64,000 bases of DNA from a virus (Duplodnaviria; Caudoviricetes): positions 1 to 64,000 of IMG/VR virus record IMGVR_UViG_3300035670_000009; one strand, written 5' to 3'. Positions 1,394-61,198 of this stretch are shown here, piece after piece. The first letter of the stretch is position 1. Each line of letters opens with the position of its first letter. The position numbers were made by a program, and so were the translations under genes. The notes beneath the pieces were generated by a model. That model saw only the letters and a list, made by a program, of their open reading frames with translations, searched no databases and was not told the DNA's origin.

Positions 1394-1529
1394 GCGCAGC
1401 AGAACTCCGTCAAAGCAATTTAGGCGCGAAAACGCAGCCCTAAATCCTACTAACGAAGGAGAAAGGCGGCAACGGCTGAAATTGCGGCCAAAAAGCCACG
1501 CAGCGCCAAAAGATATCTTTGGGCGCGCG

Positions 1530-2408
1530 TCAACCGTCTTCTTTGCGCAGCAGAAAGTAGTCCATGGCGGCCGGAGCAGCTGCTGTGTAGCGCAACAGGC
1601 CGTCTTCCCGGTACTCGACGGGCGGCTCGCCGCTCGAAAGTTTGGGAAAATAGGTCTCGCGCTTGAGATATTGCCTATTTACGCGCTCGCCGTGCCAAAA
1701 ATGCGTCGCAGAGTCTCCCGGCACGCAGCCCACCCGAAAACGTTGATCCAAAGCGTTGGCCCGGTACAAATCGAAGCTCTCGACTCCGATATTCATCTCG
1801 CCTTTTCGCGCTTTCGTACGCAAAATCGATTCCATTTCAGGATGGTCTGAAAGCGCAAACCAAAACGCAGCGTCTCCGCCACCCGCAATTGCGCGATCGT
1901 AAAAACCGCCTAGGCGCTCAAACGCATCGCGGGTCATCGCCACGCCAAATCCAGGATGCGCGCGATGCGGCCACGGCGCTAAACCGCGAGTGACGGCCGC
2001 GCCAGCTGAAAGCATTTGCTGAAAAATATTGCCGTCTTTATCGAGCCACCGCGCGCGTTGAAACGGCGAGCAGATATCGAGCGCGTCGAGCACGCCAGAA
2101 ACATGACCCGCCCAGCCGTCAGACAGCCGAATGTCGCAGTCTAAGAAAAGCAGCTTGTCGCACTCTGGCAGCAACTGCGCGCCGAGATTCCAGAGATTTT
2201 CTTTGTAGAAAATCGGCTCTGCGTTTTCATAAACGCGGACTCGTACGTCTTTTGGCGCTGGCTGCGGCTCCTGGCCGGAGAAAGTAGCCTGCGTAAAAGC
2301 TACTTGAACTCCGGAATCCAGAAGCCACTGCAGCGTTGTCGCCAAATGACGCTTTGGCAGTTCGTAGTTACACGGACTGTAAAACGAAACGACGGCTCCG
2401 AGCGGCAC
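1530..2408 (-). CDS. GT-A fold glycosyltransferase (GT2/GT7-like)
   Basis: DxD motif LFLDCD, KENLWNLGA, and C-terminal AFERLGGF...GGGD. Confidence 0.7.
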   Translation of the reverse strand: MPLGAVVSFYSPCNYELPKRHLATTLQWLLDSGVQVAFTQATFSGQEPQPAPKDVRVRVYENAEPIFYKENLWNLGAQLLPECDKLLFLDCDIRLSDGWAGHVSGVLDALDICSPFQRARWLDKDGNIFQQMLSAGAAVTRGLAPWPHRAHPGFGVAMTRDAFERLGGFYDRAIAGGGDAAFWFALSDHPEMESILRTKARKGEMNIGVESFDLYRANALDQRFRVGCVPGDSATHFWHGERVNRQYLKRETYFPKLSSGEPPVEYREDGLLRYTAAAPAAMDYFLLRKEDG

Positions 2409-2422
2409 GGAGAACTCCGTTT

Positions 2423-4126
2423 TCAGAAGGTGCCGCCATCCAGCGAATCAGTCCACGCAATCGTGTCGCTCGACGCGGTGTACAGCAGCAGCTTGTCGGT
2501 CGAGCCGCCGCCGTCCAGCGCCGAAAGCGTGTCCGCGGTGTTCGCCACCAGGAGACTGCCTTTCGCAATTGACGTCAGTCCCGTGCCGCCCTGCGCCACG
2601 CCAACTGCGGTAAAACCTGTGCCAAGCGCGCCGCTTGTAAGCGTGCCAACGCTTGTAAGCGAAGACGCAGTGACACCCGAGCCGAGCGTGCTCGCACTAA
2701 GCACCGACGCGCCGTTGATGCGGTACGCGTATGTCGCGCCCAACTCAACGTTCTGATTAAAAGTCCAGCTGTCGGTCGCGTTGACCCACAGAATGGTTTT
2801 ATCCGTCGCGCCCTTGAGCGTAATGCCGCCGCCGTCGGCCGTGGTGTCGTCCGGCGCATACACGCTGCCCAGCTCAATGTTCTTATCGTCAACTGTGATC
2901 GTGGTGCTGTTTACGGTTGTAACCGTGCCATTTACGGTCAATGAACCGGAAACGACAAGATCTTTGTTAACCGTAACCGTGCCACCGGCGCTGGAGCCGA
3001 GGTTGATGTTCGTCGTCGAACCCGACGCGCCGCTTGTGCCAATGTTGATCGTGTTGGTTGCGCCGCTGTTGGTCGCGCCCACCGCCACATTGGTCGTGCT
3101 CGCACTCGTGCCGTCATAGCCCAAGTTCAACGTCGTGGCGGCGCCGAAGGCGTTCACCGTCGTCGCCGTCGTATCGAATACGCCGAACGTCGTGCTGCCC
3201 GTAGTTACGCTCGTCGTAAACGCGGGGCTTGTGCCAAACACCAGCGCGCCCGTGCCAGTCTCGTCGGTCACAGCCGTTGCGAGATTGGCACTGGACGGCG
3301 TGGCCAGAAAATCCGCGACTCCAGCGCCCAGACCAGAAATACCCGTGCTGACAGGCAGCCCCGTGCAGTTTGTCAGCGTGCCAGACGTTGGCGTACCAAG
3401 TACGGGCGTAACAAGCGTCGGGGTGTTGGCGAACACCAGCGCGCCCGTGCCAGTCTCGTCGCTGATTACGCCAGCCAACTCAGATGAAGTAGTTGCGGCA
3501 AAAGCGCTCAGCTTGTCAGTCGTGTAAACGACTGTGCCACCCGCGCCGAACGCGACGCTGCTGGAGTCGGTGCCCGTGAACGTCAGCGTGTTGCTCACGG
3601 TGAGCGTCTTGTTGTCGGCGATCGTGAGCGTCGCGGCCGTGGCGGGCGCGGTGATCGTGACCTTGTTAACCGAGGTCAGGCTCAGATGCCGCAGGCTGGC
3701 CAGGTCTTTGTTGGCGTCGACGACCAGAGCCTTGCTGGCGGTGACGGTGCCAGCTGTAACATCATCCAGAACGTTAAGTTCGGCGGCGCTCGTGTTGACC
3801 GTGACATTGTCAATCTTGATCGTGCCTTCAAGATTGACCGTGCCGTTGAACGTGTTCGTGTACGTCTCGCCAAACGTATTGTTTGCATCAAGTTTGGCGT
3901 ACTGCGACAAATTTGAGTTTGTCAGCGCTGTATCGACGTAGCTCTTGGTGGCAAAAGTTCCGTCGCCACCGATGGCAATGACGCTCGTAGCTACGCCGTC
4001 AGAATCGCCTTTACCGTAGTAAAGCGTATTGTTGACTTCGTTAAATGCTAACTCGGCGTTGGCCAGACTTGCCGGAGCGCCTGAATCACCAGTCTTACGA
4101 CGCTTGATGCGAATAACATTGGCCAT
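2423..4126 (-). CDS. Tail fibre / long virion structural protein
   Basis: Start MANVIRIKRR (GGAG upstream), LANAELAFN motif, Thr/Gly-rich, internal repeat DETGTGALVF x2, C-terminal DGGTF. Confidence 0.7.
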   Translation of the reverse strand: MANVIRIKRRKTGDSGAPASLANAELAFNEVNNTLYYGKGDSDGVATSVIAIGGDGTFATKSYVDTALTNSNLSQYAKLDANNTFGETYTNTFNGTVNLEGTIKIDNVTVNTSAAELNVLDDVTAGTVTASKALVVDANKDLASLRHLSLTSVNKVTITAPATAATLTIADNKTLTVSNTLTFTGTDSSSVAFGAGGTVVYTTDKLSAFAATTSSELAGVISDETGTGALVFANTPTLVTPVLGTPTSGTLTNCTGLPVSTGISGLGAGVADFLATPSSANLATAVTDETGTGALVFGTSPAFTTSVTTGSTTFGVFDTTATTVNAFGAATTLNLGYDGTSASTTNVAVGATNSGATNTINIGTSGASGSTTNINLGSSAGGTVTVNKDLVVSGSLTVNGTVTTVNSTTITVDDKNIELGSVYAPDDTTADGGGITLKGATDKTILWVNATDSWTFNQNVELGATYAYRINGASVLSASTLGSGVTASSLTSVGTLTSGALGTGFTAVGVAQGGTGLTSIAKGSLLVANTADTLSALDGGGSTDKLLLYTASSDTIAWTDSLDGGTF

Positions 4127-4172
4127 GGTTAGCACTCCGTTGTTGCTGCTTGAAAGTCAAAACCTAAAGTTG

Positions 4173-4694: not shown

Positions 4695-4838
4695 GGTCAG
4701 CCCTAGCAAGCTTTACACCACACCAAGCCCGCCGCTCCGAGCTCAAAGAAATACGCCGAAAAGCACAGATTACCGGCCCAAAGATATCAAATTCGCGCGC
4801 AGCCGTGTAAGCCTGTAGCTGGTAGCTAGCGCGGCGTG

Positions 4839-5434: not shown

Positions 5435-6571
5435 CTACAACGGCGCGCTGCTCGAGCTAGCTATGTCGGGTAAAAAGTCCTGCGCGGCAGTGCCAAACCA
5501 GTTTGTGCCGTCTGAGACAAATCGAAAGATATCTATGGCGCCGACTTCTGGCGTGACTTCTGGTGCAATACCTGCAGGCCACCATGCGTCAGCAAATACA
5601 GCCGTGTAGGCGCCCAGCTGCGTTAGTATTACCGTGAAGCTGCGCCCTGCAATGGGCGCAGGCATCGTAAAAATACAGTCGTCCGTGAGCGCATACGCCT
5701 GCACGCCCCCGTCGTCGAGCGTGATCACCGGCGAAGCACCTGAGCTCGCGTGTTCGACGAAGCCCTCGGTCAGGGGCCCGCGCAGCTTGAGTCCTTCGAC
5801 GTACGTTGTGTTGGGCTCATCGGCTGTTAAATACGAACCAAGCAAGTGCGCGTTCGTTTGCTCGTTCGTGTCATTGAACTGCCCCGCCAGCACGCTTGAG
5901 TAATCTCCGCTGGCGACGTTGTCATTGTCGACATACGCCACGAGACTGCCCGCGCCCGTTCCGGCAGTAATAAGGCTGCTGCCAGAAGGCCCAGTAGCGC
6001 CAACTGCACCAGTTGCACCCACTGCGCCAGTTGCGCCAGTTGCGCCAACAACGCCAGATGGCCCAGAAGGCCCAGTAGCGCCAGAAGGGCCGACTAAGCC
6101 AGTAACGCCGACTGCGCCAGACGGACCCGCGGGCCCAATAGCGCCAGTAGCACCAGTTGCGCCGACTGCGCCAGATGCTCCAGATGCTCCGCTTGGGCCA
6201 GTTGGACCAGTCGGGCCGCCTGCCGGGCCGATCGGGCCGGTTGCGCCGCGCTGGCCTTCAGGACCAGTTGCGCCTGTAACGCCGCGAGGGCCAGTTGCGC
6301 CGCGCGCGCCTGTTACGCCCGTTGGGCCTGTTGCACCCGTAACGCCGACTGGACCTGTAGCGCCTGTCGCGCCCTGATATTGCGGCCCGCCGTCTTCCGG
6401 CGCAAAAGTCACAATCGTGCCGTCTGTTTTGGCGATGTAAAGCCGCTCTTCTGTCTCGCCAAAAGCTAATTCGCCGCGTTTCAGGCGCGTCGGCTCGCCG
6501 TTTACCGCATTTGCAGCGCGGCGACGCTTAGACCAGAGCCGAATAATGCGGAAAATGCGAGTAATAGACAC
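5435..6571 (-). CDS. Collagen-like tail fibre/virion protein
   Basis: About 43 contiguous Gly-X-Y triplets (GATGPTG...), N-terminal LKRGELAF motif, C-terminal beta-rich domain ([14 protein letters not shown]). Confidence 0.8.
5981..6373 (-). repeat. Collagen Gly-X-Y coding repeat (Y mostly Thr, also Ser/Val/Ala)
   Basis: 9-nt periodicity such as gcgccagtt/gggccagtt. Confidence 0.85.
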
Positions 6572-8375: not shown

Positions 8376-11144
8376 TTATGGCGATTTTTGCTCGTCTTGC
8401 TTGGCTGGCGTGCCGACCTCGCGCAGAATCTTGCGAAACGCCTCGTTGAGCTGCTCTTTGTTCTGAGAGAGCGTCTCTAGAACCTCGTCGCCGGTGCGCT
8501 GGCGGCGTTGGCCCAGAAGCCTGCCTAGGAAACCCGGCTCGTCACTGCCGGATAGATATCTTTGGACCTGGACGTTCTTGAGATCTTCCGGCAGTCCTGC
8601 GTGCGAGTCAAAGCGCAAACCGCGGCCGCGTGCCTGCTGCGTACGGGCCTCGTTCCAGTGCGGATCCAGAAGCTGTATGAGATTCGTTCCCTTGGTCGAG
8701 ATACCCTCGGCGCCAGCTGGGCCAATAAGCAGGGCTCTGAGCTTGCCCTCGTTGTACTCTTTCAGCGCCTTCTGCCTGGCCTCGGGTGAAATTCCGCCAT
8801 GGAAAATGCCGTGCGGAATACCAGCACGCGCGAGCGCCGCAGCGTATGGGTTCACGCCGGACTCTATGAAGTTCGAGTAGATCAGCGCCTTCTTGCGCTC
8901 GTCGCCCTCGAGAGCTTTCTGCAAATTTTGCATGGCTGTCTGGAGTTTCCCAGACTGGTCGAAGGCTTTCAGTGGATCCCGGTCGCCGCGGAAGCTCTGC
9001 GTGGACAGCGATACTTGCCGGAGGCCATTGAGAAAGCTGTTCATCTTGGCCAGCTCTTCGCGCGACATCGGAAACTCTTTGTCCATCTTCCAGAGAAACC
9101 CTGGCGGCACTTTCGTGCGAATAGCTTTTTGGATCTTCTGCTGCGCCTTGGAGAGCGGCGTTTTAATCACCTCTTCTTGGACGTCCACGCCCTCGGGAGT
9201 CTTGCTGGGGTGGTAATCAACCCGGCCCTCGAGCAGCTGGCGCAGCTCTTTTTCGTTTTTGACGTACGGCACTTCGCCCCACTGCGCGCCGCGAAGATAC
9301 GGAATAATTCCCGGAAACTTAGACTTGTAGCCGATGTAGCGCTCTTCAAACTGCTTGGGCGTGAGCTCTTTGCTGGTCAGCATCGAGATCAGGCTCGCCA
9401 TGTCAGTAGGCGAGTTCGTGATCGGCGTGCCAGATAGGAGCACAAGGCGCTTGGCTTTCTGCGCTGCCTCGCGGGCTGCGCGAGAAGCTGCGCTTTCAGG
9501 GTTACGTAATCTCTGCGCCTCGTCCATGACCAGCGTGTCTGGCTGCGACTGGAACTTTTTGCCCAGCGCGAGTCCGGAGTAAGAAAGCAGCTCAGGATTC
9601 GAGCCCTGCGTGAACTTGCCGAGTTCTTTCTGAAAGTTGCCGCGCAAACTAGCTGGCACAACGACGCCGTAATTACCGCCATGGATTTTCTGCGCGGCTT
9701 CAGCAGCGGCAATAGCCGAGAGAGACTTGCCTGAACCTAAGCCGTGATAGACCAACAAGCGCGGGTCTTCTCCAGAGACGCGATCTGATACGCGCTGCTG
9801 ATGCTCCTGCAGCTCGACGTCGGGCGAAAGGGCGGCGGTCTTAGGGCGGCCGAGCCAGTATTTGCGCACAGCATTAGCGCGCGTGTTCTCACCTGGCAAG
9901 GGCGGAATGAGCTCGCGGCCGCTCAGGATATCGCCGGACCCGCCAGCCTGTCTGCCGCCAGACAAAGGCAACTGATAGTCGATGAGTTGTCCGCCTGGTC
10001 CTAGATTATCAGGGCGAATGTCTTTAACGCCAAAATTTAATAGCGGTTGATAAACCTTACGCGCCCGCTGCACCGCTTCGTTTTCTAGCGCTTCTCGCCG
10101 TGCCCATGGGTACGGCATCCCGGTCGTTAGATCGATGAACGTATCGTCAAAGCCCTTGTCAGTAATTGCAGGCAGGCCCGGCGCAAAGGTTGTGATCCAG
10201 CCGGGCACTACTGGCTTGTCGCCAAACTCTTGAAACACGCCTTTAACGCCGCTGCCGCGCAAGTATTTAGCTGCAGTGCCGGGAAACTGCCGGGCTAGAA
10301 TGCGCGAACCTTCAAGACTGCGTGCGGCTTCAGTGCGCAACGCTTGCCGGGACAAATCATGCGCGGGTAATTTGCGCACAATTAAACCAGACGTGCCTTT
10401 AAGTTTGCCCGCCATAAGGTCAGCTTGGTTAAATGTGCCGCGGCCAAGACTCTTGATAAATCGCATACTGCCGTCGGGCATACTGGCCGTAATCTTGCCC
10501 AGTGCCGCTGGAGAAAGCTGCCCTGCTCGGGCCAGCTGCACCCATTTTGGCGCGGCTGTTTTAACGTACTGTGCCAGGTCTTCATCGTCGTACGCGGCTG
10601 ATTTAAAAAGCGCAGACACAGCCCGCCACACCTGGCCCGGTTCCGCTTCGGTGCGACGTTCGTGACAGGAAACCGGAAAAACATCCCCTAGCTGTGTCTG
10701 CGCCTGTTTCACTTTGTCTTGGACGTATCGTTGCATCGCCTTTCGCTGGTACTCGTCCAGCATTTCGGTGACGCTGTTGGCCTGTTCGGCAGCTACGAGT
10801 TTTGCAGGATCAACGCCCCAGTTGCGCAGCGCCCAGCCGCGGCGAGCTGTGGGCTTGGCCGCAAACGGGCCGCCGTGGCGGGCTTTGAAGCTCAGCCAGC
10901 GTTTGATCTGGCGCTCGTCCTCGCCGGGAATTCTGCGACCACCAGCATAGCGCTTGTACCACTGCGCCCAGCCTTTGGGGTCGTGCTCGCTGAGCCACTC
11001 GGGTTTCCATTCGCCCAGGCTGGCTAGCCTGGGTGCGGCGCCTCGATACAGCGAGTCATATACGCCGAGATTTTCCAACTGCTCTGGAGTGTAATCTGGC
11101 TGGAACTTCGCAGAGATGTCGGGTTGTTGCGGCACATCGCTCAT
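8376..11144 (-). CDS. Multidomain protein: conserved uncharacterised N-domain + kinase-like domain + SNF2-type SF2 helicase
   Basis: Helicase motifs HGLGSGKS, DEAQ, SGTPITN, DPHWN, QARGRGLR; kinase-like LGRGTF, IVRK, KDIRPDNL, LIDY; start at MSDVPQ overlaps the upstream stop (ATGA). Confidence 0.75.
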   Translation of the reverse strand: MSDVPQQPDISAKFQPDYTPEQLENLGVYDSLYRGAAPRLASLGEWKPEWLSEHDPKGWAQWYKRYAGGRRIPGEDERQIKRWLSFKARHGGPFAAKPTARRGWALRNWGVDPAKLVAAEQANSVTEMLDEYQRKAMQRYVQDKVKQAQTQLGDVFPVSCHERRTEAEPGQVWRAVSALFKSAAYDDEDLAQYVKTAAPKWVQLARAGQLSPAALGKITASMPDGSMRFIKSLGRGTFNQADLMAGKLKGTSGLIVRKLPAHDLSRQALRTEAARSLEGSRILARQFPGTAAKYLRGSGVKGVFQEFGDKPVVPGWITTFAPGLPAITDKGFDDTFIDLTTGMPYPWARREALENEAVQRARKVYQPLLNFGVKDIRPDNLGPGGQLIDYQLPLSGGRQAGGSGDILSGRELIPPLPGENTRANAVRKYWLGRPKTAALSPDVELQEHQQRVSDRVSGEDPRLLVYHGLGSGKSLSAIAAAEAAQKIHGGNYGVVVPASLRGNFQKELGKFTQGSNPELLSYSGLALGKKFQSQPDTLVMDEAQRLRNPESAASRAAREAAQKAKRLVLLSGTPITNSPTDMASLISMLTSKELTPKQFEERYIGYKSKFPGIIPYLRGAQWGEVPYVKNEKELRQLLEGRVDYHPSKTPEGVDVQEEVIKTPLSKAQQKIQKAIRTKVPPGFLWKMDKEFPMSREELAKMNSFLNGLRQVSLSTQSFRGDRDPLKAFDQSGKLQTAMQNLQKALEGDERKKALIYSNFIESGVNPYAAALARAGIPHGIFHGGISPEARQKALKEYNEGKLRALLIGPAGAEGISTKGTNLIQLLDPHWNEARTQQARGRGLRFDSHAGLPEDLKNVQVQRYLSGSDEPGFLGRLLGQRRQRTGDEVLETLSQNKEQLNEAFRKILREVGTPAKQDEQKSP
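11048..11120 (-). repeat. 73-bp direct repeat copy 1 (encodes DISAKFQPDYTPEQLENLGVYDSL)
   Basis: Matches 11737-11809 with 3 mismatches. Confidence 0.95.
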
Positions 11145-11824: not shown

Positions 11825-11897
11825 GCTGGCGTCCTTGCCATTGCCAATAGATATCTATGTACCGGGCCAGTTTACCAAATGCACTTACACCCGAGCT

Positions 11898-12893: not shown

Positions 12894-15799
12894 TTTTTGC
12901 TCTTCTCTTTTTTCTGCCTGTCGGCCTTCGACTTCGATGCGGACTCTGACTCGTCGCGGTCAGAGTTGCTGTCTTCCGGCTTGTCGTCAGCGTACGTTCC
13001 CTTGCGCCGGGCTGCTTGCAACAGGCCATAAGCCTTGCCGCCGACCAGGCCAGCCAGTGCGCCATTCGGGCCGCCCAGCATTTTGCCCGCGTAGCTGCCG
13101 TACCCAGCAGGCAAAACTTTCTGCCGGTCGTGCAGAATCTCGTTGAGCTTGTTGGGCTTATCGCCGAGCGCCTTACGCAACGCCCGCTCAGAGCGCTGAT
13201 TTGCATTGGCCTCGTGAAGCAACGACACGAGCGGAATCTTGCCCGCCACGCTGTACAGATCTCGCTGGAGGCCCGTGCCCTGACGGCGCAACCAGGTAAG
13301 CAACTTGTTCTTGCCGGGCTCGTACTCGGGGACTTTCTTTGCGTTAAAGTCTAGCGCGTGGCCCAGCTCGTGTGAAAGCGCCGCAGGATTATTGCCGTAA
13401 AGATATGTGCTGTCGGAGAACGGGTTATAAGCGTTGCCGCGCGTCAGGGCCGTCGCGAGATAGCTCAGCGGCAACGAAGCGGTGCCAATTGCTTTGCCTG
13501 CAACGCTCGTACGGGGATTGGTCATCGTGCGCTTGATTTCCCGAAAGAAGCGCGGGCCGCCAAGATACACCTGATGATTACTCAAAGCTTGCGGGTCAGC
13601 CTGCGCCATGGTTTGCGCCAGCGCTTTCATTTTCTGCGCGCGAATGTCTTCTGGCGCAGCCTCGGGGTCAGTCACGCCCGCTGCGCCAGTCCAATCGGTT
13701 GGATTCACATGCAGCTGCGGCGAGAGAATGAGATTGCTGGGAAAGCCGCCGAGGTGCCCAAGCGTACTGCTCAGCGCCATGGCAGGCAGACCGCCGCGGG
13801 ACACGTCGATAGATATCTTTTCAGCCTGCGCGGCGCCGCGTGCAATAGCGAACAAGTCACACGCTGACTTTGGACGAATGCCCTGCAGCTGGCCCCACGT
13901 TGTCGCCTTCGTTGGCACATCGCCAAAGAACGACACAAACTCGCCCGTGCCGTACGACGAGGGAATACGCCCGGCAGCTTGGCCCACGCGTGTATAGCGC
14001 TGCATGGCTTTGCTCATTGCTGCCTGCGCGGCTTCAGTGTCGCCGAACCTGCGGAACATGTGAATGCCGTCGGGCATGCGCAGGCGCGTCGTGGGCGGCG
14101 CGATGGGGCGCGGCGTTCGGTTCCACAGAAACTCTGCCAGCTCGCTTAGCCTGGCCCCTGGTACCGCCTCGCGACGTGCAGCAGACAGCGCGGGCAATAC
14201 AGACGGATGCGCCGTTGACATACTCAGGACTTTTTTAGCCGCTGTTTGCGCTGCGCCAGCTACGCGAGAAGGCAACGCGGGCGCAGCTTCGCGGCCAAAG
14301 ATACCCGCCATCGTGCCCATGCGGCTGCTGAGATTTCGCGTCAAGTCGGTCATGAAGTTGGCAGACTTTTCACTCTGCGCAAGACCAGCTAGGACAGCCA
14401 GGTCTGTTACAGAACCGCATTTGCAGTTCCACTTACGCAAAGATTTGTTAATGCGCGAGTCGGGGTCTGATTTCGTTTCACTTCCCGTGTTCACGCGTTT
14501 CATGCCGCACATGCGCGCACAGAACGAATTTTGGCGCTTCTTACGCTCGCCGCTGGGGTTGCTCTCAGTGACGGGCGGCTTGAGATTCCCGCCGTGCGCT
14601 TTCTCGTAGCTCTTGCGGCCTTTTTCATTCAGGCCGCCTTCGGGGTTCTTGCCTTCGCTGCGCTGCCATGCGGGACTCGCTGCGCCTTGTTTCGCAAGCG
14701 CCGCCTCGATGAGCTGGCGCATCTCGGGCTTGAGCTGGCCCATGTGCGAGAACTCGAGTCTATTTGGCTGCTCCATGACGTGCATGCCGCGAATAGCCTT
14801 GAGCTTGCGCTTGTACTTGGGCACGTCTTCGCGCAGCACATAGGGATCCCGATCGAAGATTCGGCGCAGCCAGCCAGGCGGCTTGTCTACAACGTCGACG
14901 CCGTGCGTGTGCCCGTAGCGATATGCGTTGCCCACGTCGACGAGACCTTCGGCGCCGTACCAGCCGGGCATCTTTTCATCATTGCCGCCCAGAATGCTCG
15001 TAATCCCAGCGGTCTTTGAGCTATCAGGCGAGTTCTTCTGGCCGAACGCCGCGTTGCCATTGAGCTGGCCCTTGGCGCCCAGTGGCCCAAACGCCTGGAT
15101 GGGATTGTGCTGCGGATTCGAGCCGCCGCCGACCGGGCTGTTACTGGGTTGCGGCATACCTTGCTGCGCTGTTTGGGCGCCCTGCGCAGCTGACGCATTC
15201 GCCGGGGCGTTAACCGTACCCATGGGGGGCGTAATGTACGGAGACGGAATCGAGTACCTCTTCAACCCCATGTTTTGCGGGACAAAACGCGGCTCTCGAC
15301 CCTCGGCCAACGCTTGCGCAGTTTCCATTTCATTGCGAAAAGGCTTCGCCAAAACAGTGGAAATCTTTGCAAGCAAACTTTGCGCCGCCTCTTTATCGCA
15401 CTCTTCACGCTCACGCGATTCAGACTGCGAAGACTCGGCGTTGTCTAACTTTTGCTCGCCCTGCTCACGTTCTTGTCCGGCATACGTGGGTTTGTCGCTG
15501 TGGGGAATGTCCACTTTGACCAACGAATCCATAGCCGTTTTAGCGTTGGCGCTACCTTCTGTATTGCATATTAAAAAGGCACCGTTGCCCGAAAATTGTG
15601 CAAGCCCGGCCGAAAGAGCCGCGAGAGCGGCAGCTTTTTCTTTGCTATTGGCGCTGGGCTTTTTCTGGTCGTGGTCTTTCTTATCGGCGTACATCGGCAG
15701 ACCCTTGTTGGATTCGGGGTACTCATGCGCCCAACGTTTGGCGATGTCGGGATGCGCTGCCCATAGAAAACGGCGCTGCTTCTCAGACTGAAATGGCAT
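12890..15799 (-). CDS. 969-aa multi-module protein with C-terminal HExxH metallopeptidase-like motif
   Basis: Modules PFQSEKQRRFLWAAHP, AWQRSEGKNPEGGLN...FCARM...RKWNC and SHELGH...HEANAN, separated by KxA-type linkers. Confidence 0.65.
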   Translation of the reverse strand: MPFQSEKQRRFLWAAHPDIAKRWAHEYPESNKGLPMYADKKDHDQKKPSANSKEKAAALAALSAGLAQFSGNGAFLICNTEGSANAKTAMDSLVKVDIPHSDKPTYAGQEREQGEQKLDNAESSQSESREREECDKEAAQSLLAKISTVLAKPFRNEMETAQALAEGREPRFVPQNMGLKRYSIPSPYITPPMGTVNAPANASAAQGAQTAQQGMPQPSNSPVGGGSNPQHNPIQAFGPLGAKGQLNGNAAFGQKNSPDSSKTAGITSILGGNDEKMPGWYGAEGLVDVGNAYRYGHTHGVDVVDKPPGWLRRIFDRDPYVLREDVPKYKRKLKAIRGMHVMEQPNRLEFSHMGQLKPEMRQLIEAALAKQGAASPAWQRSEGKNPEGGLNEKGRKSYEKAHGGNLKPPVTESNPSGERKKRQNSFCARMCGMKRVNTGSETKSDPDSRINKSLRKWNCKCGSVTDLAVLAGLAQSEKSANFMTDLTRNLSSRMGTMAGIFGREAAPALPSRVAGAAQTAAKKVLSMSTAHPSVLPALSAARREAVPGARLSELAEFLWNRTPRPIAPPTTRLRMPDGIHMFRRFGDTEAAQAAMSKAMQRYTRVGQAAGRIPSSYGTGEFVSFFGDVPTKATTWGQLQGIRPKSACDLFAIARGAAQAEKISIDVSRGGLPAMALSSTLGHLGGFPSNLILSPQLHVNPTDWTGAAGVTDPEAAPEDIRAQKMKALAQTMAQADPQALSNHQVYLGGPRFFREIKRTMTNPRTSVAGKAIGTASLPLSYLATALTRGNAYNPFSDSTYLYGNNPAALSHELGHALDFNAKKVPEYEPGKNKLLTWLRRQGTGLQRDLYSVAGKIPLVSLLHEANANQRSERALRKALGDKPNKLNEILHDRQKVLPAGYGSYAGKMLGGPNGALAGLVGGKAYGLLQAARRKGTYADDKPEDSNSDRDESESASKSKADRQKKEKSKK

Positions 15800-18496: not shown

Positions 18497-18516
18497 CGAA
18501 TAGATATCTATTGACT

Positions 18517-20263: not shown

Positions 20264-20345
20264 TTCTTTGTCCTTTACACAAAAGAGTTAAATCAACCGA
20301 TCGCGCAGCCAAATAAGCGCGATCACAAAAACAGCCAATAGATAT

Positions 20346-20510
20346 CTATCCACAAAACCACGGGTTAACACTACGCAACCAGGCCCGATGCGATTCGGGA
20401 ATAGCCGCGTAGACGCCCACTGCGTAGGTTCGGCACCAAAGGTCTTCCCACTGGTGCTCGGCCCACATTTCTTGCCGCAGCGCAGCAAGATACAGCACTT
20501 CAGCCGTCAT
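20346..20510 (-). CDS. Small Trp-rich hypothetical protein
   Basis: MTAEVLYL start overlaps upstream stop (ATGA). Confidence 0.4.
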   Translation of the reverse strand: MTAEVLYLAALRQEMWAEHQWEDLWCRTYAVGVYAAIPESHRAWLRSVNPWFCG

Positions 20511-26573: not shown

Positions 26574-26607
26574 TTCCCCCTCCGTGGAAAGATATCTATC
26601 CAACCAA

Positions 26608-31615: not shown

Positions 31616-31645
31616 AGCGTCTCCTTGCTGCGAGTGGATAGATAT

Positions 31646-31960
31646 CTATCGCCCAGTGATACCGAAGCTCGGCGAATCGCCCAAAATACGGCGCGGGTCT
31701 TCACGCTGGGCTGCGTTTATGCCGACCGATGGCGTGTCGGTCGTTGCGTACGGCGTATCCGCCGTAATCAGCGCCAATTGGCTGCCGTCGGCCAGGCGCA
31801 ACGCCAAACCGGCCGCTTGCATGCCGACACCTTGAATGCCTTTTTGGGCCAGCCAGTCGGTCATGAATGCGCAAAAGTGGTCAATCGGCGCGGCGGCCGC
31901 GTTTGGATTGGCCTGAAGATACTGTTTACGAATCTCGTCGACCAGCTCGCTTTTTGCCAC
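31646..31960 (-). CDS. Hypothetical protein
   Basis: AGGAG RBS with GTG start. Confidence 0.5.
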   Translation of the reverse strand: MAKSELVDEIRKQYLQANPNAAAAPIDHFCAFMTDWLAQKGIQGVGMQAAGLALRLADGSQLALITADTPYATTDTPSVGINAAQREDPRRILGDSPSFGITGR

Positions 31961-38707: not shown

Positions 38708-39146
38708 TGTCCGGATCAGGAAGCACGTCGTCAAATACACCAAGGCCATCGCCGCTGTCGTCGAACGGATCTACAGCTGCAGCGCGGTGATTTACCGCTG
38801 GCATTTTTAATTGCGGCGGATCCTCGAGATTGATGGGATCAACGCCCAGGTAGCCGGTCTCGTCTTCTTCAAATTCAGTCGGCGAGTCAAACAACGGGAT
38901 TGGTTCTTGCCCGGGCACAAGCAGGTGGCGCATGGGCGGCTTGGAGATCTTCAACCGCTCGCCACGAAATGCGAACACAGAAACGTCCTGATTAATGCGG
39001 GTTTTGAGATACGCTGTCAGCTCTTCCAGCGTTTTAAATGCCTGCGTGAAATACGTACCGTCATGGTTTAAGACGGCTACGTGGAAAGATATCTTTTGAA
39101 CCTCGGCCGTGGCGGGTGCGGCAAGTTCCTTCTTTTCTTTTGTCAT
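38703..39146 (-). CDS. Hypothetical acidic protein
   Basis: GGAGGG RBS. Confidence 0.6.
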   Translation of the reverse strand: MTKEKKELAAPATAEVQKISFHVAVLNHDGTYFTQAFKTLEELTAYLKTRINQDVSVFAFRGERLKISKPPMRHLLVPGQEPIPLFDSPTEFEEDETGYLGVDPINLEDPPQLKMPAVNHRAAAVDPFDDSGDGLGVFDDVLPDPDS

Positions 39147-41067: not shown

Positions 41068-41744
41068 GATCGCCTCTGAGTCGAGGGGTTTTGCGCTTCC
41101 TGCGGCCGCGGATGCCACTGGTGAAAAAAACCGGGCACCCGTTCCCGCACAATCTCCATTTTCTGATAGGCGCGCCAATACACGTCGTCATCTTCTCGAC
41201 CGTAGCGCGCGCCCCAACGCTGTCCGTTCCAACCGCCTAGATCGTAAAAATCTTCGGCAACAAAACCGCAATTGCCGCGGCCGCTGTCGCGCCACCAGCC
41301 GTTCGCCGTCGAGCCTGGCGCGCGAGTGAACGGGCGACCGTTGTCGCGCACTGCCATTGGCGCGTGCTCGTAGAGCGAGTAACAGATTGGAAAATAGGCT
41401 TGTCCGGTGTTGACATAGCGGCGCACGCGGGCGGAAAAGTCCGGTGGCAGCACCATATCACAGTCGACAAAAAACACCAGGTCATCTGCGCAGGGTTGCG
41501 CGAATCGCATCGCCTGGTTGCGCGCGTGAGCGCGATTGATGTGCCCGTACTCATGCCCGGCGACATAACGGACGCGCCGCGACGACGCGGAATAGATATC
41601 TTTCCCGCTACCGTCCCAGTCGTAGACGTGAAGAAGATCGGTCTCGTTGTCAGGCTGCGCCGCCAAGCGTAAGTAACTGTCCCGCAGAACGGCAAAGGTG
41701 TCCCAGCGATTGTAAACCGCTGTGCAGTAATGAATTCGGCTCAT
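41064..41744 (-). CDS. GT-A glycosyltransferase, chondroitin synthase/GT7-like
   Basis: FFVDCDM, AYFPICYSLY, GWWRDSGRG, DLGGWN...WG...EDDDVY. Confidence 0.75.
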   Translation of the reverse strand: MSRIHYCTAVYNRWDTFAVLRDSYLRLAAQPDNETDLLHVYDWDGSGKDIYSASSRRVRYVAGHEYGHINRAHARNQAMRFAQPCADDLVFFVDCDMVLPPDFSARVRRYVNTGQAYFPICYSLYEHAPMAVRDNGRPFTRAPGSTANGWWRDSGRGNCGFVAEDFYDLGGWNGQRWGARYGREDDDVYWRAYQKMEIVRERVPGFFHQWHPRPQEAQNPSTQRRS

Positions 41745-45764: not shown

Positions 45765-45832
45765 AGAAACCTCCTTTAATGAATAACCCGTTTCTACTTC
45801 TTGCTCTGATAAAGTCAAGACAATTTTCAAGA

Positions 45833-46996
45833 TCAAGCAGAATCGCCCGGTTTTCGACCCTTCCGAATTTTTGGCGTCATCATTTCCATTGCTGCCATCT
45901 GCAATCGATCTCGCGAGGCGGCGGGCTCGTCGCGAGCGAAGCGCAGCAACGAACAGACCAGGTCATAGGCTGTGCGCGCACCAAGAACACTGTGCGTATA
46001 GACCTCAGTCGGGTCGCGAGGATCCAGATCTGCGCCGACCATTGCTGCGTTTTTAACGATTGTTTTGGCGTCGTCGCGCAGCAGGCCACGCCGTACAAGC
46101 TGTTCCACCCACTGGCCGACAACGTCGTTGAACTTCTCCGTGTCGTCAGTCAGCCCGAGCGGCGTTGCTTGTAGCTTGCCCAGTTGCGCCACAATACGCG
46201 GCATATCCAGCTCGCGAACGACGGCCTTGGCGACAAGCATGTTTGTACGCCCGGCCAAATCTGCGCCCACGTGGCTCATACGGGCGTTGTTTCTGGGCCG
46301 TTCCAACGCAGGGCCAAAACGCGTCAGCAAGCAAAGCACGGCGCTAATCGCTTTGTGTCGGTCTTCGCTATTGTTGAAAGACCAGCCCGCGGCAATCGTG
46401 TGCCGTGAATCTCGATAGATATCTTTCCGCTGACTGGTCGGGTCGATGTAGAACACGCGCAACGCGCGGCCAACAAGCTCGGCTCGCTGAAAACGGGCCG
46501 TCGGCTGCTGGGCCTGCATCTCGTTAACGACAATCTCCAAGAACGCGCTATTGTCGAGCATGCGATGATTCAAACCCAAGAACCCCTCGACGACGCGTTC
46601 GCGGTGATCGACCAGAAGCGTCCGCTCACGCACGGCGTCAATTCGAGTGCGGGCAACAAGGTTAAACAGACTGACCGCGGCTTGCAGGCTCGGCTCTGCT
46701 TCTTGATTTGCACTAATGCGCTGCTCGCCCGCCACTTCGCTGAAAACGCTGGCAAGGCCTGGCGCTAAACCGGTCGCCAGCGCCTGAAAGCCCAGGTAGT
46801 TAAACCGGTAGCCGTTTTCTGCCAGGCGGCCGTCAGGCGCCATGAGAAGCTGCTCGACATCTGAGATGGGCACGCAGTCCGTGTGCTCGCTGCGCTGCGC
46901 AAGAAACTGTTGCAGATCGTTCAGCTGCTGGGAGTTAAAAGCCAGCGCCGTGACGGGCGCAAAAATCGATCGGTTACGAATTGTAGCGCCAGCCAT
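45833..46996 (-). CDS. Hypothetical protein, possibly DUF932-like
   Basis: LLVD...GFLGLNHRMLDN. Confidence 0.45.
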   Translation of the reverse strand: MAGATIRNRSIFAPVTALAFNSQQLNDLQQFLAQRSEHTDCVPISDVEQLLMAPDGRLAENGYRFNYLGFQALATGLAPGLASVFSEVAGEQRISANQEAEPSLQAAVSLFNLVARTRIDAVRERTLLVDHRERVVEGFLGLNHRMLDNSAFLEIVVNEMQAQQPTARFQRAELVGRALRVFYIDPTSQRKDIYRDSRHTIAAGWSFNNSEDRHKAISAVLCLLTRFGPALERPRNNARMSHVGADLAGRTNMLVAKAVVRELDMPRIVAQLGKLQATPLGLTDDTEKFNDVVGQWVEQLVRRGLLRDDAKTIVKNAAMVGADLDPRDPTEVYTHSVLGARTAYDLVCSLLRFARDEPAASRDRLQMAAMEMMTPKIRKGRKPGDSA

Positions 46997-47010
46997 CCAT
47001 GCGCCTTCAG

Positions 47011-47885: not shown

Positions 47886-47901
47886 ACAAACCTTTCTATA
47901 A

Positions 47902-49275: not shown

Positions 49276-49375
49276 AACTCCCTCAAAAACCGCCGCGCAC
49301 TACACAGTGCTGACAGTAGGCTGTGAAAAACACCAACACAGTGCCCGCGCGGGACCGCTGTGTCTAATCAGACGT

Positions 49376-50791: not shown

Positions 50792-50875
50792 ATGTGCCAC
50801 TCCTTCGAGAATGCCATGTTTCAAATGGCGGTGTGAAATCGCAGTCTAACTCGGAAAACCAGAAAGTCCAGATGA

Positions 50876-53800
50876 TCAGTCCGCGCAAAGCCAACCCAAG
50901 CCCAAAGCCCTTGCCTGGTCTGGCTTTAGCTTTTCTCCCCAACTGACAAACACCTCTCGATCAGCGCCGAAGTGGTACGGCTGCTTGATCGGAATCAGTG
51001 ACCCGTCAAGGTAACGAGGCCAAAACGGGACATCGTCGACCATGCATTTAGGCACCACGTGCTTGTACACGTGCTCAGCGTGTTCAACTGGCACGATAAG
51101 CATGATTGCGTCGTGGATCTGCAGCGCAATGTCGTATTGCACTTCGGGATGCGCGCGACGGTATTGATAGAAGTTGTTTAACGCGATCGATACAGCGTCC
51201 GCCACGCCGCCTTGAATCGGAAAGTTCTGCGCCTGGCGCTGTTGTTCCCCGATCACGGCGCGGTCAGTCGACGGCATAAACCGCCGGTAGCGACCGTACG
51301 GACCCACGAGCCAGCCTGGCATTTGGCTACGTTCGCGGCACTCGGCCAGAAAATCTTTGGTGCGGGGATACGTGTCGAAGTAGGCGTCGATCATCAATTG
51401 GCACTCTTCGGCCGTGACCTCGACGCCCTCCTCTTTGCACTGCCGCGCGATAGCCTCGGCGCCGCGGCCGTAAGGAATTCCAAAATTCACGTTCTTGGCC
51501 GCCACCCGAAGGCCTTTCTTACCGGCCTTCTTCATGCCGCCCTTGGTCGGCTCAATGCCAGTCAAGGCAAAAGCCTTTACAGCCTGCCGAGAATGGATGT
51601 CGTAGTGGTCAGGGTGCTCCTCGGGCAGGAGATTCCGCCTTACGTGTTCGATAAAATTCTGGTCCTGGCTCAACCACGCGAGGACCGCCAGTTCCGCACC
51701 TGTGAGGTCCGTCTCGATGCCAACGCAGCCCTCGGGTACACGAAGGATCGAGCGGACGGGATGCCGGTAGGACTCTCCGAGGATTCGCCCGTAGTCGTCT
51801 TCGCGGCGGGAGCTGAGGTTTTGCAGCGGGGGCCGGGAGCTGCTGGCGCGGCCGGTTTCCTTGGTCTGAAAAAGATGCGTGCGCACTTTGCCATCTGCAT
51901 GCATAGCGCCAATAAGGCCTTTTTCATATTGGTAGTGGCCGCCTTCATCGGTTTCAAAATCTCCATCTTCGTTAATGGCTGGTTTCCGCAACACGGAAAC
52001 GAGCACCTGGCTGATGAACTTGTAATCGCGGATTTTAGCGGCCGTAACGTTCTGGTGTCCAAGAATGCCGAGGCTTTCTTTGTCGGTACTGGGAACGGCC
52101 GACTCCCTTCGCGTTTTGTAGTTCAATTCGCGCCAGAGCGCGGGCCGTTTGCCCGTTGTCTTGATGGGCGTAAGCCCAAGCGGTTGCGCGTCGTCAGGAA
52201 CCTGAACCGCTGCGGCGTAACGGTTTAGGAACTGCCTCCCAAACAGCGCCACGGAAAGCTGCGGCTGACTTTTGGGATTAAACGCAGGCCAGTTTAAGTC
52301 TGCGCGAAGCTCTGCCAGCAACCGGTCCTGCGCGTTCATGAAGATGGTCGTTAATTCGTCGGCCCGCGCGCGATCCACGACCAAACCGGTTCGCTCCATT
52401 TCCAGAAAGGCGAGACTGGCCTGATGAGCCGTCCAGTATGGCAGCCAGCAGTCGTTTCCATAGATATCTTTGGCGATCAACCCGTCGGTTCCGTCGGTGC
52501 CGTAAAAGCGCAGCATGATCCGCCGAGTAACGTCGGCGTCGTAGCTGGCATAAGGGTGAAGAACAGAACACGGAATCACGCCGTAGCCCGCCATCTCGCT
52601 GGCCTTGATCTTCTTTCGCTTCTCGTAGCGTTTCTTCCACTTGTCCAGCGCGACCCAGTAGGTCGGCGCGGTAGTGAACCGCATTGAGCACTCGTCCAGG
52701 CCGAACTTCGCGGTCTCGTTGACTGCGTGATACATCAAGCTGGTGTCCCAGCCGCCCTCGGTACGAATGTCGGGAGAAGCCGCCGGGGCGTACTCGTCGC
52801 GGCAATCTACGCCGAAGTCGATGAGCCACGGCAAATCGGCGCGGAGGAAATGGCCGCCCACCCGGACCTTGCGGTCTGGGCTGCTCTTGAGGAGCCGGTT
52901 CAGCTGAACGCGAGCTGCTTCAAGATTGGGCCGGAACGCCTCCGCGCCGTTGTCGTAGCGAAGGACGACGGTCCGCGCCCACTTGTCGCGGTTGCTGACC
53001 TGAATCGTCCTAAGATAAGCGCCAGCCTCCGTCGGGTAATCGCCGTGCCATTCGCAGTCCACGGCGATGATGTTTGCGTTTGGGTCAGGGTCCGAGAGCA
53101 TCTCATCGACCATCTCGGTGAGCGCCTCTTCGGTGTAAACGTCGGCATGGTCGACCAGTTCTTGCTCAGGCATGCGGTCATGAATGAGATCCACGAACCG
53201 CCGAACCTGGCCGCGTAAGTCTTCGTAAGCCTCGGGCTTACGCAACAAGTACGCGGGGTTCATGGCCGTCATCACCTTGATTTCGCGTTCGCCTGCACCG
53301 TCGGGGACCTTGATCGTCATCACCCGCCCCGAAAGATTGGAGACGTTGCCGGTCGTGTTTAACACGGCCTTAGCGGCCTCTTGGCCCAAGCAGAGAACAT
53401 AGTCCGGCCGGACAAGCTGCAGTTCTTGGTGCAAGAGCGGCGCGCAATCTTTGAGCCACGCAGCCGGGGTCGTGCTCGAGTCGGGCGTCGGCGAGCCGAA
53501 CTTGCAAGCGAAAGTAACGTACCAGCTGTGATATTCCTCCTCGGGCACGTTCAGGTCGGCCAGCACGTTTTCAAATTCCTCGCCGATTCGGCCGGTCATT
53601 ACGCGCTGCGCGGCCATCTCGTCTCGTCCAGGTATTTTCGAGACGACCATCACCCGCGCCGCTTTGGGGCCGTACGTGCCTTCGTCTGCTAGGCCCCAGA
53701 TGTGCCCGGGGACGAACTGCGAAACCTTCGAACCGTTCTTGAGTTTGATTGGTAACGAAAAAGTCGGCTCGTACAGCGCGAGGCGGTAGAGATAGACAAG

Positions 53801-54375: not shown

Positions 54376-54383
54376 GGGGCTCC

Positions 54384-55409: not shown

Positions 55410-55420
55410 GGTGGTCCTTT

Positions 55421-57100: not shown

Positions 57101-57825
57101 AACGCTCTCCAATGCTGCCTAATTTCTAATGCGGCTGCGCGCAACGCAGGTGTGACGCACCACGACTCAACAGCCGTGTCGTAAATGCGCTGCTGCGCCT
57201 CGTAATCCAGCGCGGCGAGCCATAGATATCTTTCCACGCCGCGCGAGTTTTCCAGCTGATGCGCAAAGGCATGCCGGAAAAACGGGCTGGCCGAGACGTA
57301 GCCCTCGTCGCAAAGAACGTAGAAAACCTGGTCGTCAGGGGCCAGGTTTAGCGCCTGCGTGCCGCGGATGCGATTAGCGATCGTCGCTCCGGCTACGTCA
57401 AAGCTGTACTTGAGCATCTTCGGCAAGGCCTGAAGATACTCTTGGTAAATTGCGGGAGATTGCGCGCCATACAACCGGCTTGGCCGCATGTCCGGAACAA
57501 TATGCGTCTGCGCAACCTGTCGCGCATACTGCACGCCTGAAAAGTGCGCAGCCACGTAAAGCCCGGGGTCGGCTCGCGACGCGCGCACCGCGTCCGCGAT
57601 CTTTTGCCATACAGCTGTACGTTTAACGCCGTACGCGTCTTTACCGCCATCCCAACTGACGCGCCGTCGATTATGAACTGGCGCATCCCAATCCGGCTCA
57701 TTTTCGTAATGCCGGACAAACTGATACCGCAGATAGGCAGTCAGTTGATGTGCTTGAAGCGTTAAATGCCAATCCGGGGATAGGTCAATCTCCGCCAATG
57801 CCGCGCCAGCTTCTCTGCGCTTCAT
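57094..57825 (-). CDS. Hypothetical protein
   Basis: ORF in replication operon. Confidence 0.55.
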   Translation of the reverse strand: MKRREAGAALAEIDLSPDWHLTLQAHQLTAYLRYQFVRHYENEPDWDAPVHNRRRVSWDGGKDAYGVKRTAVWQKIADAVRASRADPGLYVAAHFSGVQYARQVAQTHIVPDMRPSRLYGAQSPAIYQEYLQALPKMLKYSFDVAGATIANRIRGTQALNLAPDDQVFYVLCDEGYVSASPFFRHAFAHQLENSRGVERYLWLAALDYEAQQRIYDTAVESWCVTPALRAAALEIRQHWRAFA

Positions 57826-60331: not shown

Positions 60332-60332
60332 G

Positions 60333-60830
60333 TTAGCTGGCGTTGAGCCCTGGTCCGGCGACGGGTTCGATTGAAACAATTTCAAATGTCCCATATTTTT
60401 CGCTGTCGTTGTTAAACGGTGAAAACCCCTTGTACTTGCCAATGAGTGTGAGCATGTGCTCAAAATCACTGATTGAGATCTCTTCGGGCAAAACGGCAGA
60501 GATTGTTGCAGTGTCGCCAGGTCGAAACGCTTCGTGTACCACAAAATGACTTTTGGTTTGCGGGCCGCCCTGCGTCACAACTGTGCGGCGCCAATCGTTA
60601 CAGGGTTCGCCGCCTACTACTGGGCAGAAATCGATTTTTTTGACTGCAGATTGATGCCGGTTGGCCAGTTTCGCCGCATATCGCATAAGACTGGCCCAGG
60701 CGCTGGGTAAAAACATGACGCGACCGTTCGGATCGCGTTCAAACGCAAATACGGTCTGGCCGTGTCGCCGCCGTTTAGCTGCGCCCAGCGCCACACGGTT
60801 GAAACGCAGCGTGACAGTAACTTCTTGCAT
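60333..60830 (-). CDS. Hypothetical protein
   Basis: ORF in operon. Confidence 0.55.
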   Translation of the reverse strand: MQEVTVTLRFNRVALGAAKRRRHGQTVFAFERDPNGRVMFLPSAWASLMRYAAKLANRHQSAVKKIDFCPVVGGEPCNDWRRTVVTQGGPQTKSHFVVHEAFRPGDTATISAVLPEEISISDFEHMLTLIGKYKGFSPFNNDSEKYGTFEIVSIEPVAGPGLNAS

Positions 60831-60835
60831 AGATA

Positions 60836-61198
60836 TCAATCCGCATTTTGTCGCGACATCCAATCACGGATCTTTTTGACAGCCTCGATGAGGTGCGCCA
60901 TCCGCTCATCGTCATCGAATATGCCGTCTCCACGAGGATGCGCCTCGTGAACCGTCTCGCCGCTGTAGTCCGGACAGGATACCCGGAACCAACCGTGTCG
61001 CAGCCGAAGATACCCCACTTGTCGCTCGCCGTCGAATACGTCGTACTGCTCTGGGCAGGCGCCGCTGGTGCAGACAAACTTTAAGCCGTCGATCTCGAGG
61101 TTCTCGGGCCACCTGAACTGGTCCAGGCCGAGTTCCTGATCAAGCGCGGAAAGCTCGTTCAGCGCCTTCAGGCGCGGGTCTTGATTGTCGGTCATCAA
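60836..61198 (-). CDS. Hypothetical phage protein
   Basis: ACPEQYDV...VGYLRLRHG motif; GGAGG RBS. Confidence 0.6.
   Translation of the reverse strand: MMTDNQDPRLKALNELSALDQELGLDQFRWPENLEIDGLKFVCTSGACPEQYDVFDGERQVGYLRLRHGWFRVSCPDYSGETVHEAHPRGDGIFDDDERMAHLIEAVKKIRDWMSRQNAD

Follow-up and report, generated by a model that had tools for sequence, protein, structure and literature searches.

Why would a phage carry the same 12-bp palindrome, AWAGATATCTWT, every few kilobases along its chromosome, inside genes as well as between them? The question is raised by the 64,000-nt window analysed here, which is the first 64 kb of IMG/VR record IMGVR_UViG_3300035670_000009 (G000 below), a 203,910-bp phage genome that is called complete, with a 73-bp terminal repeat, a GC content of 57.7% (close to the ~60% assumed in an earlier note on this DNA) and ~241 genes, nearly all on the minus strand. 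The window holds 14 exact copies against 0 expected from 100 dinucleotide-preserving shuffles, all of them at the starts given in the earlier note, and the two one-mismatch copies that it reported, TTAGATATCTTT at 36472 and ATAGATATCAAT at 60829, are also real. Genome-wide there are 39 exact copies against 0 expected, and AWAGATATCTWT is both the most over-represented 10-mer and the most over-represented 12-mer of the genome. The looser forms WAGATATCTW and WWW-GATATC-WWW (W, A or T) number 42 and 49, respectively. The inner 8-mer AGATATCT occurs 15 times in the window against 0.18 expected and is flanked by A/T on both sides in 15 of 15 cases, as had been claimed. The palindrome is therefore confirmed as a real and strong observation. 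We read the 12-mers as a chromosome-wide lattice of dyad-symmetric protein-binding sites on double-stranded DNA that would have co-evolved with its reader, an explanation that we favour with modest confidence.

The occurrence of the word in three reading frames and in intergenic gaps had been taken as a sign that selection acts on the DNA, and the codon shuffle, the peptides and the alignments of relatives agree with this. Copies in genes make up 27 of the 39, with 16, 5 and 6 in frames 0, 1 and 2, and shuffling synonymous codons within genes leaves only ~0.1 of these 27, a check that the earlier note had asked for. The other 12 are intergenic or partly so, compared to the 8% expected (p = 3e-5). 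The peptides KDIY, KDIF, IDIY and IDIF together occur 17 times vs. ~1 expected. In three complete relatives with a median protein identity of ~53% to G000 (G002–G004), the matching places are typically 4–9 mismatches from the word (median ~6), so the word was built by substitution, both synonymous and amino-acid-changing. The polymerase loop at 52460 reads KDIY in G000, KDIF in the close relative G006 and RSGT, RSNT or RDQH in distant relatives, with no insertion; at site 8552 the serine codon is TCC in G000 and AGC in G002 within an unchanged QRYLS, and elsewhere AGCGGTTCTTAT has become AAAGATATCTTT inside a conserved QR(Y/F)LY. An origin of the sites by 12-bp (four-codon) insertion was ruled out, as the alignments show gap-free substitutions. 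These comparisons support selection acting on the DNA word and not on the protein. The perfect form ATAGATATCTAT has nine copies, seven of them intergenic, so the choice of A or T at letters 2 and 11 inside genes looks like a concession to coding. On the plus strand, the mixed-flank forms ATAG..CTTT and AAAG..CTAT are skewed 16:3, which plausibly reflects coding, with 11 of the 16 being in-frame KDIY.

Two checks proposed in the earlier note, conservation of the sites in relatives and spacing too even for chance, both came out in favour of a functional word. No cultured relative was found by megablast of 20 kb against 50,697 phage records, and the G000 polymerase is <26% identical to that of any cultured phage. 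A polymerase search returned ~200-kb metagenomic relatives with 0–2 exact copies as well as the close fragment G006, which keeps all seven sites of a 29-kb overlap at 76.5% DNA identity to G000. Between these two, identity is 94% at the sites vs. 74% in the ±30-nt flanks, which shows purifying selection on the sites. A search with the large RNA polymerase subunit found further relatives, including G007–G011. Four of these (G007, G009, G010 and G011) have a median protein identity of 63–72% to G000 and carry WAGATATCTW once per 4.4–6.7 kb. Counting a place as the same when a site lies within 60 nt of a G000 site mapped via protein anchors, 25 of 36 covered places are occupied in G007, 14 of 23 in G009, 16 of 25 in G010 and 11 of 20 in G011, compared to ~3% for random placement in each, while G002–G004 share 1–2 of ~36 (random ~1%). 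Sites are thus kept in these four genomes far above random.

The most informative relative is G008 (197 kb, 96% complete, median identity 59%), which has only two WAGATATCTW sites and an over-represented palindrome of its own, with TTGATATCAA present 21 times, TGATATCA 31 times and the consensus ATTGATATCAAT. Sites are at the same place in 12 of 42 covered cases, where random placement gave 2.4% and at most 10% in 300 trials. In most of the places common to both genomes, both halves are respelled, for example ATAGATATCTAT in G000 vs. AATGATATCAAT in G008, or AAAGATATCTTT vs. TTTGATATCAAA. The change centres on the base at −4, which is A in 90 of 98 G000 half-sites (76–86% A in its clade-mates among G007–G011) and T in 69 of 80 G008 half-sites, and hybrid sites with one half of each spelling occur in both genomes. 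Conserved places together with a symmetrically changed word are the mark expected of a two-fold symmetric reader whose half-site preference shifted along with its sites. We had considered the motif to be restricted to the G000 lineage, and this was dropped once WWW-GATATC-WWW turned up across the family, with a different spelling in G008. In these site-rich genomes almost all lattice sites fit that class, for which flank composition predicts <1 per genome. The counts are 49 in G000, 40 each in G007, G008 and G009, 30 in G010, 27 in G011, 23 in G015 (in 120 kb), 21 in G004, 16 in G012, 13 in G003, 10 each in G001 and G005, 9 in G013, 8 in G002, 4 in G014 and 0 in G016.

The spacing of the sites can be observed directly. 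From 1.5 to 110 kb there are 25 sites with a mean spacing of 4,514 bp and a coefficient of variation (CV) of 0.34, an evenness matched by 0 of 20,000 random placements; adding two near copies lowers the CV to 0.30. In the structural-gene half (116–204 kb) the sites come as pairs ~1 kb apart every 9–10 kb (CV 0.66), and there is a 20-kb gap at 110–130 kb that is shortened by a one-mismatch copy at 124409. Spacing in the G008 lattice has a CV of 0.66 (P = 0.004). A spread in which no long stretch lacks a site points to a function of the whole chromosome and not to the control of single promoters.

How could such a lattice work? The family word would be WWW-GATATC-WWW, spelled AWAGATATCTWT in the G000 clade, and its reader would be a symmetric, sequence-specific and phage-encoded protein, most likely a homodimer, with each subunit reading one half-site (A-W-A-G-A-T). 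The reader's preference at ±4 would have changed between lineages together with the sites, and sites would be put where the sequence tolerates them, in intergenic gaps and variable protein loops, leaving no long stretch without one. The role would be chromosome-wide, such as compaction or organisation, genome-wide control or the marking of phage DNA as self. The sequences themselves show the lattice, the selection on the DNA, the kept places and the symmetric respelling, whereas a protein as the reader, its identity and the effect of its binding are what we infer from them. Contacts to a core combined with minor-groove or shape readout are an established basis for reading A/T flanks, and the A/T-only flanks in any order beside a fixed GATATC would fit such a readout.

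The same bases bear on whether the word works as RNA or single-stranded DNA instead, as a small hairpin or self-pairing element. With nearly all genes on one strand, the copies are transcribed in the same sense and appear in mRNA, and the ±4 change between clades (A..T to T..A) preserves a base pair. The positions at ±5, however, show no covariation, being complementary in 20 of the 39 sites and not in 19; at most 3–4 A/T-rich pairs could form around a loop of at least 3 nt, too weak for stability, and a single strand needs no perfect two-fold symmetry of the core. We regard the hairpin as very improbable. The claim in the earlier note that the word is a binding site stands in that dyad symmetry, W positions that do not covary and a symmetric change at ±4 all fit a site for a paired protein; its further description as parS-like is taken up below.

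A lattice of binding sites also has to be weighed against transcription signals, that is, promoters, operators, terminators or pause sites for the phage RNA polymerase along ~240 genes that run one way. Around 40 copies would be typical for one promoter class in a 200-kb phage, the sites are enriched between genes (12 of 39) and one of them, 18500, is closely followed by the family promoter word. The G004 genome additionally has ten copies of the asymmetric TTTAGATATCA between genes (e.g. 58999–62833), most of them right after terminator-like hairpins, in a position like that of site 18500 and 3 to 11 nt upstream of early-type promoter words. Against these points, 27 of the 39 sites lie in genes and show no bias toward the next gene start (median 651 nt vs. 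519 nt for random sites; p = 0.91), and several intergenic sites sit between a terminator and a ribosome-binding site (RBS) only 15–23 nt from the start codon, from where they cannot promote that gene. No conserved asymmetric flank was found around the G000 sites, which lack the fixed position and orientation upstream of genes that defines a phage promoter class, and a perfectly symmetric promoter would also fire against the gene direction. The family furthermore has a separate promoter word, CTAAAT-N14-15-GGGCATAT, with the palindrome beside only one of its nine G000 copies. We find a transcription signal quite improbable as the general explanation.

The promoter-like word, CTAAAT-N14-15-(C/G)GGCATAT, is found in every relative examined, with 5–9 strict copies per complete or near-complete genome. 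In G000 its copies have minus-strand starts at 12338, 16571, 16982, 17843, 18495, 27625 and 38706, and also at 107562 and 151090. It is probably the family's own promoter class, distinct from the palindrome. The G004 word TTTAGATATCA may be an operator related to the palindrome, and it is speculation on our part that the lattice grew out of an operator, given the position of site 18500. A second repeated word, GGTACCGAACTGCT (15 copies), has nothing to do with the palindrome and is a coding tandem repeat in a pentapeptide-repeat gene. That gene (115099–116694, plus strand) is composed with 15-bp tandem repeats and belongs to a small plus-strand island that has no matches in the compared relatives and falls inside the 20-kb palindrome-free stretch.

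If not docking sites, the palindromes could be substrates of a sequence-specific DNA enzyme, either a methyltransferase or other modifier that marks the phage's own DNA, or a nickase. GATATC is the EcoRV site, a classic type II palindrome, and programmed single-strand breaks are found in T5-type phages. Dimeric PD-(D/E)XK enzymes read such sites, and a changed specificity would also produce a symmetric respelling. G000 has a PD-(D/E)XK gene of the I-Ssp6803I type at 190709–191167 that G009, G010 and G011 also have and that G008 and G002–G004 lack. This gene is, however, absent from G007 despite its covered neighbours and 40 sites, its absence from G008 is that of a lattice-bearing genome, and it adjoins a tRNA gene as free-standing homing endonucleases do. 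The earlier note had left a methylation or restriction link open on account of the GATATC core, and this finds no backing in G000: the DNA methyltransferase families N6_N4 (PF01555), Dam-type (PF02086) and C5 (PF00145) gave no match, and GATATC outside the lattice is about as frequent as predicted (31 vs. ~34 expected), so neither a cognate methyltransferase nor the avoidance of the hexamer that marks an EcoRV-type restriction-modification system was seen. Nicks in both strands of a symmetric site would cut the chromosome, and it is not obvious why enzyme targets should be evenly spaced. An enzyme that uses the sites as substrates seems unlikely to us, though less so than the transcription signal.

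The reader may also come from the host. It could be a nucleoid-associated protein, a factor for replication or repair, or part of a defence system that takes the word as a pass-word or decoy, and the spellings would then mirror different hosts. No phage-encoded reader was found, and the differently spelled clades are also unlike in their GC content and accessory sugar-pathway genes, possibly because their hosts differ. A search with UDP-galactopyranose mutase for a hint of the host only gave scattered phyla, and the phage has its own multisubunit RNA polymerase and replication genes, which would make it less reliant on host proteins that handle DNA. Unlike the asymmetric, oriented signals of the Chi type, AWAGATATCTWT is perfectly dyad-symmetric at its core and reads the same on both strands. 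The graded density of 0 to 49 sites across the phage family also fits a factor inherited by the phages more easily. A host reader is, in our judgement, slightly less likely than an enzyme. Sugar-pathway enzymes and glycosyltransferases account for many of the G000 genes that are missing from the site-poor G002–G004 and have a family match. Genes found in the site-rich clades alone include those for an HldE-like kinase/cytidylyltransferase, for epimerases and for several glycosyltransferases (71187–72704, 77836–78780, 109080–110987, 7367–8341 and 41064–41744).

Returning to a phage-encoded dimer as the reader, several results weigh against it. In six-frame searches of the complete 203,910-bp genome, ParB_N (PF02195) gave no candidate, with the control of this search detected in 11 of 14 genomes, and HTH_3 and HU were not detected; for RHH_1 (PF01402) one candidate scored and none passed, in a search that easily misses a short divergent ribbon-helix-helix (RHH) domain. 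Of ~100 proteins scanned with Pfam and PHROGs, none matched a DNA-binding family. The reader is a candidate only, the lattice is read from the sequence of an uncultured phage, and a sequence-specific enzyme in place of a binder would give the same sequence statistics. The best candidate depends on a predicted three-helix domain, on weak fold matches and on third-helix differences that are confounded with phylogeny. Since no ParB_N was found, this is not a ParB/parS system, and parS-like does not hold as a statement of family. Neither of the two proteins that the earlier note named as candidates fares better. The SbcC/SMC ATPase (63479–65635), which is Rad50-like, adjoins the gene of an Mre11-like phosphoesterase (65577–66761) and forms with it an ordinary recombination nuclease with no known sequence specificity, the match of the DUF1016_N-like protein (44862–45836) is below the Pfam cut-off, and both are equally conserved in site-poor relatives.

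As the same places are respelled in G008, the search for the reader can be narrowed to proteins common to both lineages that differ in DNA-contacting residues; looking for genes shared with G008 gave 34. The candidate that we looked at most closely is a pair of neighbouring paralogues. For the shorter protein (91076–91465, 129 aa), which is among these 34, AlphaFold confidently predicts an N-terminal domain of three helices (pLDDT > 90), which a basic, disordered linker joins to a helical hairpin at the C-terminus. Its fold matches are weak and below the level that proves a fold (Foldseek E at least 0.27, VIA Z at most 6.5), and most of them are DNA-binding helix-turn-helix (HTH) or winged-helix proteins, namely Fur, PadR, BlaI, homeodomains, transposases and the N-domains of small terminases. 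A profile search of this family against PDB sequences returned nothing meaningful. The longer protein (90313–91032, 239 aa) has an acidic N-terminal tail and a lysine/alanine/proline-rich linker and is found in most family members, with no detection in G016 (which has no sites), G005 and G012. Its third helix reads PQVSVTLRDF in G000 and G007, PQVSVALRNV in G010, PQVSVLVKKL in G008 and AQVSQLLKKA in G002–G004, differences that would fit co-evolution and are fully confounded with phylogeny (three clades). We regard the pair as a weak candidate for the reader, and a rather doubtful one.

Other proteins were set aside as the reader. Genes confined to the AGATATCT clade had the wrong distribution, did not look DNA-binding or had no match. 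Among individual genes, 95732–96202 is folded (pLDDT 63) and absent from G008, 110995–111531 and 150331–150899 have the wrong distribution among site-rich genomes or are not DNA-binding-like, 80681–80992 has no family or solved-structure match, the PD-(D/E)XK gene at 190709–191167 is absent from G007 and G008, and 54013–54375, between the polymerase and primase genes, has no DNA-binding features. The protein of 27079–27555 has two HTH-like stretches and a GRP motif; where other phages with this word have a homologue, it is only 22–28% identical and lacks the GRP. For two reader candidates, Atlas look-ups led to unnamed viral clusters only.

The closest published parallel is an unexplained one. 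Cluster O mycobacteriophages such as Corndog carry a 17-bp dyad repeat, 5′-TGTTCGGNNNCCGAACA, in >30 copies genome-wide with no established function (PMC4351075). G000 is similar in having one dyad word in >30 copies, in and between genes and with no orientation bias; the comparison is with a family known to us by its description only, and these are ~70-kb siphoviruses with another word, whereas G000 is a 204-kb phage with its own multisubunit RNA polymerase. The description of Cluster O is also without even spacing, proteins rewritten for the word or a respelled sister lineage (PMC4351075), all of which are seen in the G000 family. This one report, without a function, is what is in print on phage palindromes dispersed over a whole genome, and our look at the literature on evenly spaced phage palindromes and on AGATATCT found nothing relevant.

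The closest mechanistic model may be KorB with its OB operators on the IncP plasmid RK2, where 12 operators on 60 kb would equal a similar density, one per 4–5 kb. KorB is a CTP-dependent sliding clamp of the ParB family whose palindromic operators are found replicon-wide, some far from promoters, with the dimer acting at a distance (PMC11790492). G000 resembles this system in having a palindromic site scattered over the whole replicon. ParB-parS and KorB-OB sites are palindromes of 13–16 bp in several dispersed copies, and we count the 12-bp word of G000 with its 39 exact copies as a site of this kind. Membership fails on the protein, since the ParB_N CTPase domain was not detected in G000 and no KorA-like partner is known; RK2 is also a plasmid and G000 a lytic-type phage.

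Cluster A stoperators (L5, Bxb1) are a third parallel, with dozens of 13-bp copies genome-wide, including in genes, bound by one phage protein. They are asymmetric, oriented with transcription and bound by the prophage repressor of a temperate phage. G000 likewise has dozens of copies of one word across the genome and also in genes; its word is symmetric, though, and no repressor or integrase module was seen. The matS/MatP, SBS/SlmA, NBS/Noc and ram/RacA systems consist of dispersed short palindromes and of dimeric readers that serve to organise or mark DNA and not to control the adjacent gene. The G000 sites are comparable in being short palindromes dispersed over a large DNA domain. These arrays are, however, bacterial, restricted to a domain and much sparser, and they are read by RHH, TetR or ParB folds, none of which was detected in G000.

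One specific version of our reading is that a phage protein outside the ParB family and not described before, with the HTH-like pair with a lysine/alanine-rich linker at 90.3–91.5 kb as the candidate, reads the evenly spaced lattice, that reader and sites co-evolve, and that a shift in preference (e.g. AGAT to TGAT) respelled dozens of sites in place, including those in essential genes. We offer this only tentatively, as possible and still doubtful. If true, phages would have a novel type of system for marking or organising their chromosome, and nature would offer an example of a protein and all of its binding sites changing in concert. What the case adds is a DNA word that overrides protein sequence, graded relatives with 0 to 49 sites and a sister genome with a symmetrically changed word at the same places. 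A reader, if found, would show how a virus can mark or organise its entire chromosome without ParB and would provide a compact system for studying how the specificity of a protein and of dozens of sites change jointly.

Individual intergenic sites in the window lie in various settings. AAAGATATCTTT at 1509..1520 is 116 nt upstream of a minus-strand, tail-fibre-like gene with its start at 1393, and 4780..4791 is a variant of the WWW-GATATC-WWW class, AAAGATATCAAA, with TTTGATATCATT at the same place in G007 and G009. The perfect form ATAGATATCTAT is found at 11847..11858, 23 nt upstream of the start of a methyltransferase-like gene (11141–11824); at 18500..18511, with a terminator-like hairpin on one side and, on the other, the promoter word CTAAAG-N-CCGGGCATAT that belongs to gene 17931–18380; at 20338..20349, 75 nt upstream of gene 19628–20263 (kept in G009); and at 31638..31649, 23 nt upstream of a thymidylate kinase gene (30992–31615), where it is kept in G006 and G009 and G008 has AATGATATCAAT at the same place. 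AAAGATATCTAT at 26588..26599 sits between a terminator hairpin and the RBS of gene 26337–26573, 15 nt from the ATG, and is kept in G009 and G011, with the G006 site 65 nt away.

Sites within genes include a second copy of AAAGATATCTAT at 5525..5536, read as IDIF in frame 0 of gene 5435–6571 (minus). The form ATAGATATCTTT occurs at 8552..8563 in an SNF2-type helicase gene (8376–11162, minus; frame 1, QRYLS; kept in G009 and G011), at 13809..13820 in the middle of gene 12890–15799 (minus; frame 2, EKISI), at 41592..41603 in a glycosyltransferase gene (41064–41744; frame 0, KDIY; kept in G006, AATGATATCAAT at the same place in G008), at 46415..46426 in gene 45833–46996 (frame 0, KDIY, with TDIY or NDIY in relatives; kept in G006, AATGATATCATT at the same place in G008), at 52460..52471 in a variable loop in the middle of the family A DNA polymerase gene (50876–54016; frame 0) and at 57222..57233 in gene 57094–57825 (frame 1, ERYLW; kept in G007). 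AAAGATATCTTT recurs at 39085..39096 in gene 38703–39146 (frame 2, QKISF) and is kept in G006. The one-mismatch site TTAGATATCTTT at 36472..36483, in gene 35856–36773 (frame 2, AKISK), is the same word in G006; in a ~2% divergent strain it is unchanged inside, with changes 13 nt before and 9 nt after, which is too little as evidence with 40 of 584 differences covered. The remaining site of the window, the hybrid ATAGATATCAAT at 60829..60840, joins a half-site of the G000 clade (ATAGAT) to a half of the G008 type (ATTGAT).

A few other features of the genome were observed. The polymerase of 50876–54016 (minus) has an N-terminal domain of the uracil-DNA-glycosylase superfamily, a fusion that is conserved across the phage family. 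A helicase-like open reading frame (57785–60544, minus) has a LAGLIDADG_3 match at residues 433–499, and its relatives align over only ~385 residues; this stretch may be an intein or a homing-endonuclease insertion. The I-Ssp6803I-like gene at 190709–191167 (minus) matches the PD-(D/E)XK homing endonuclease 2OST over its full length (E = 0.005), is patchy among relatives and is adjoined by tRNA-Asn at 191221–191293. A phage-encoded tmRNA, whose short tag is GAPLALAA, adjoins tRNA-Lys(ttt) and tRNA-Thr(tgt) at 23131–23661 (minus). Lastly, metagenome runs of subsurface, marine, freshwater and aquatic origin, from five studies in all, contain phage DNA 98–100% identical to positions 36001–56000, and one widespread strain among them differs by ~2%.

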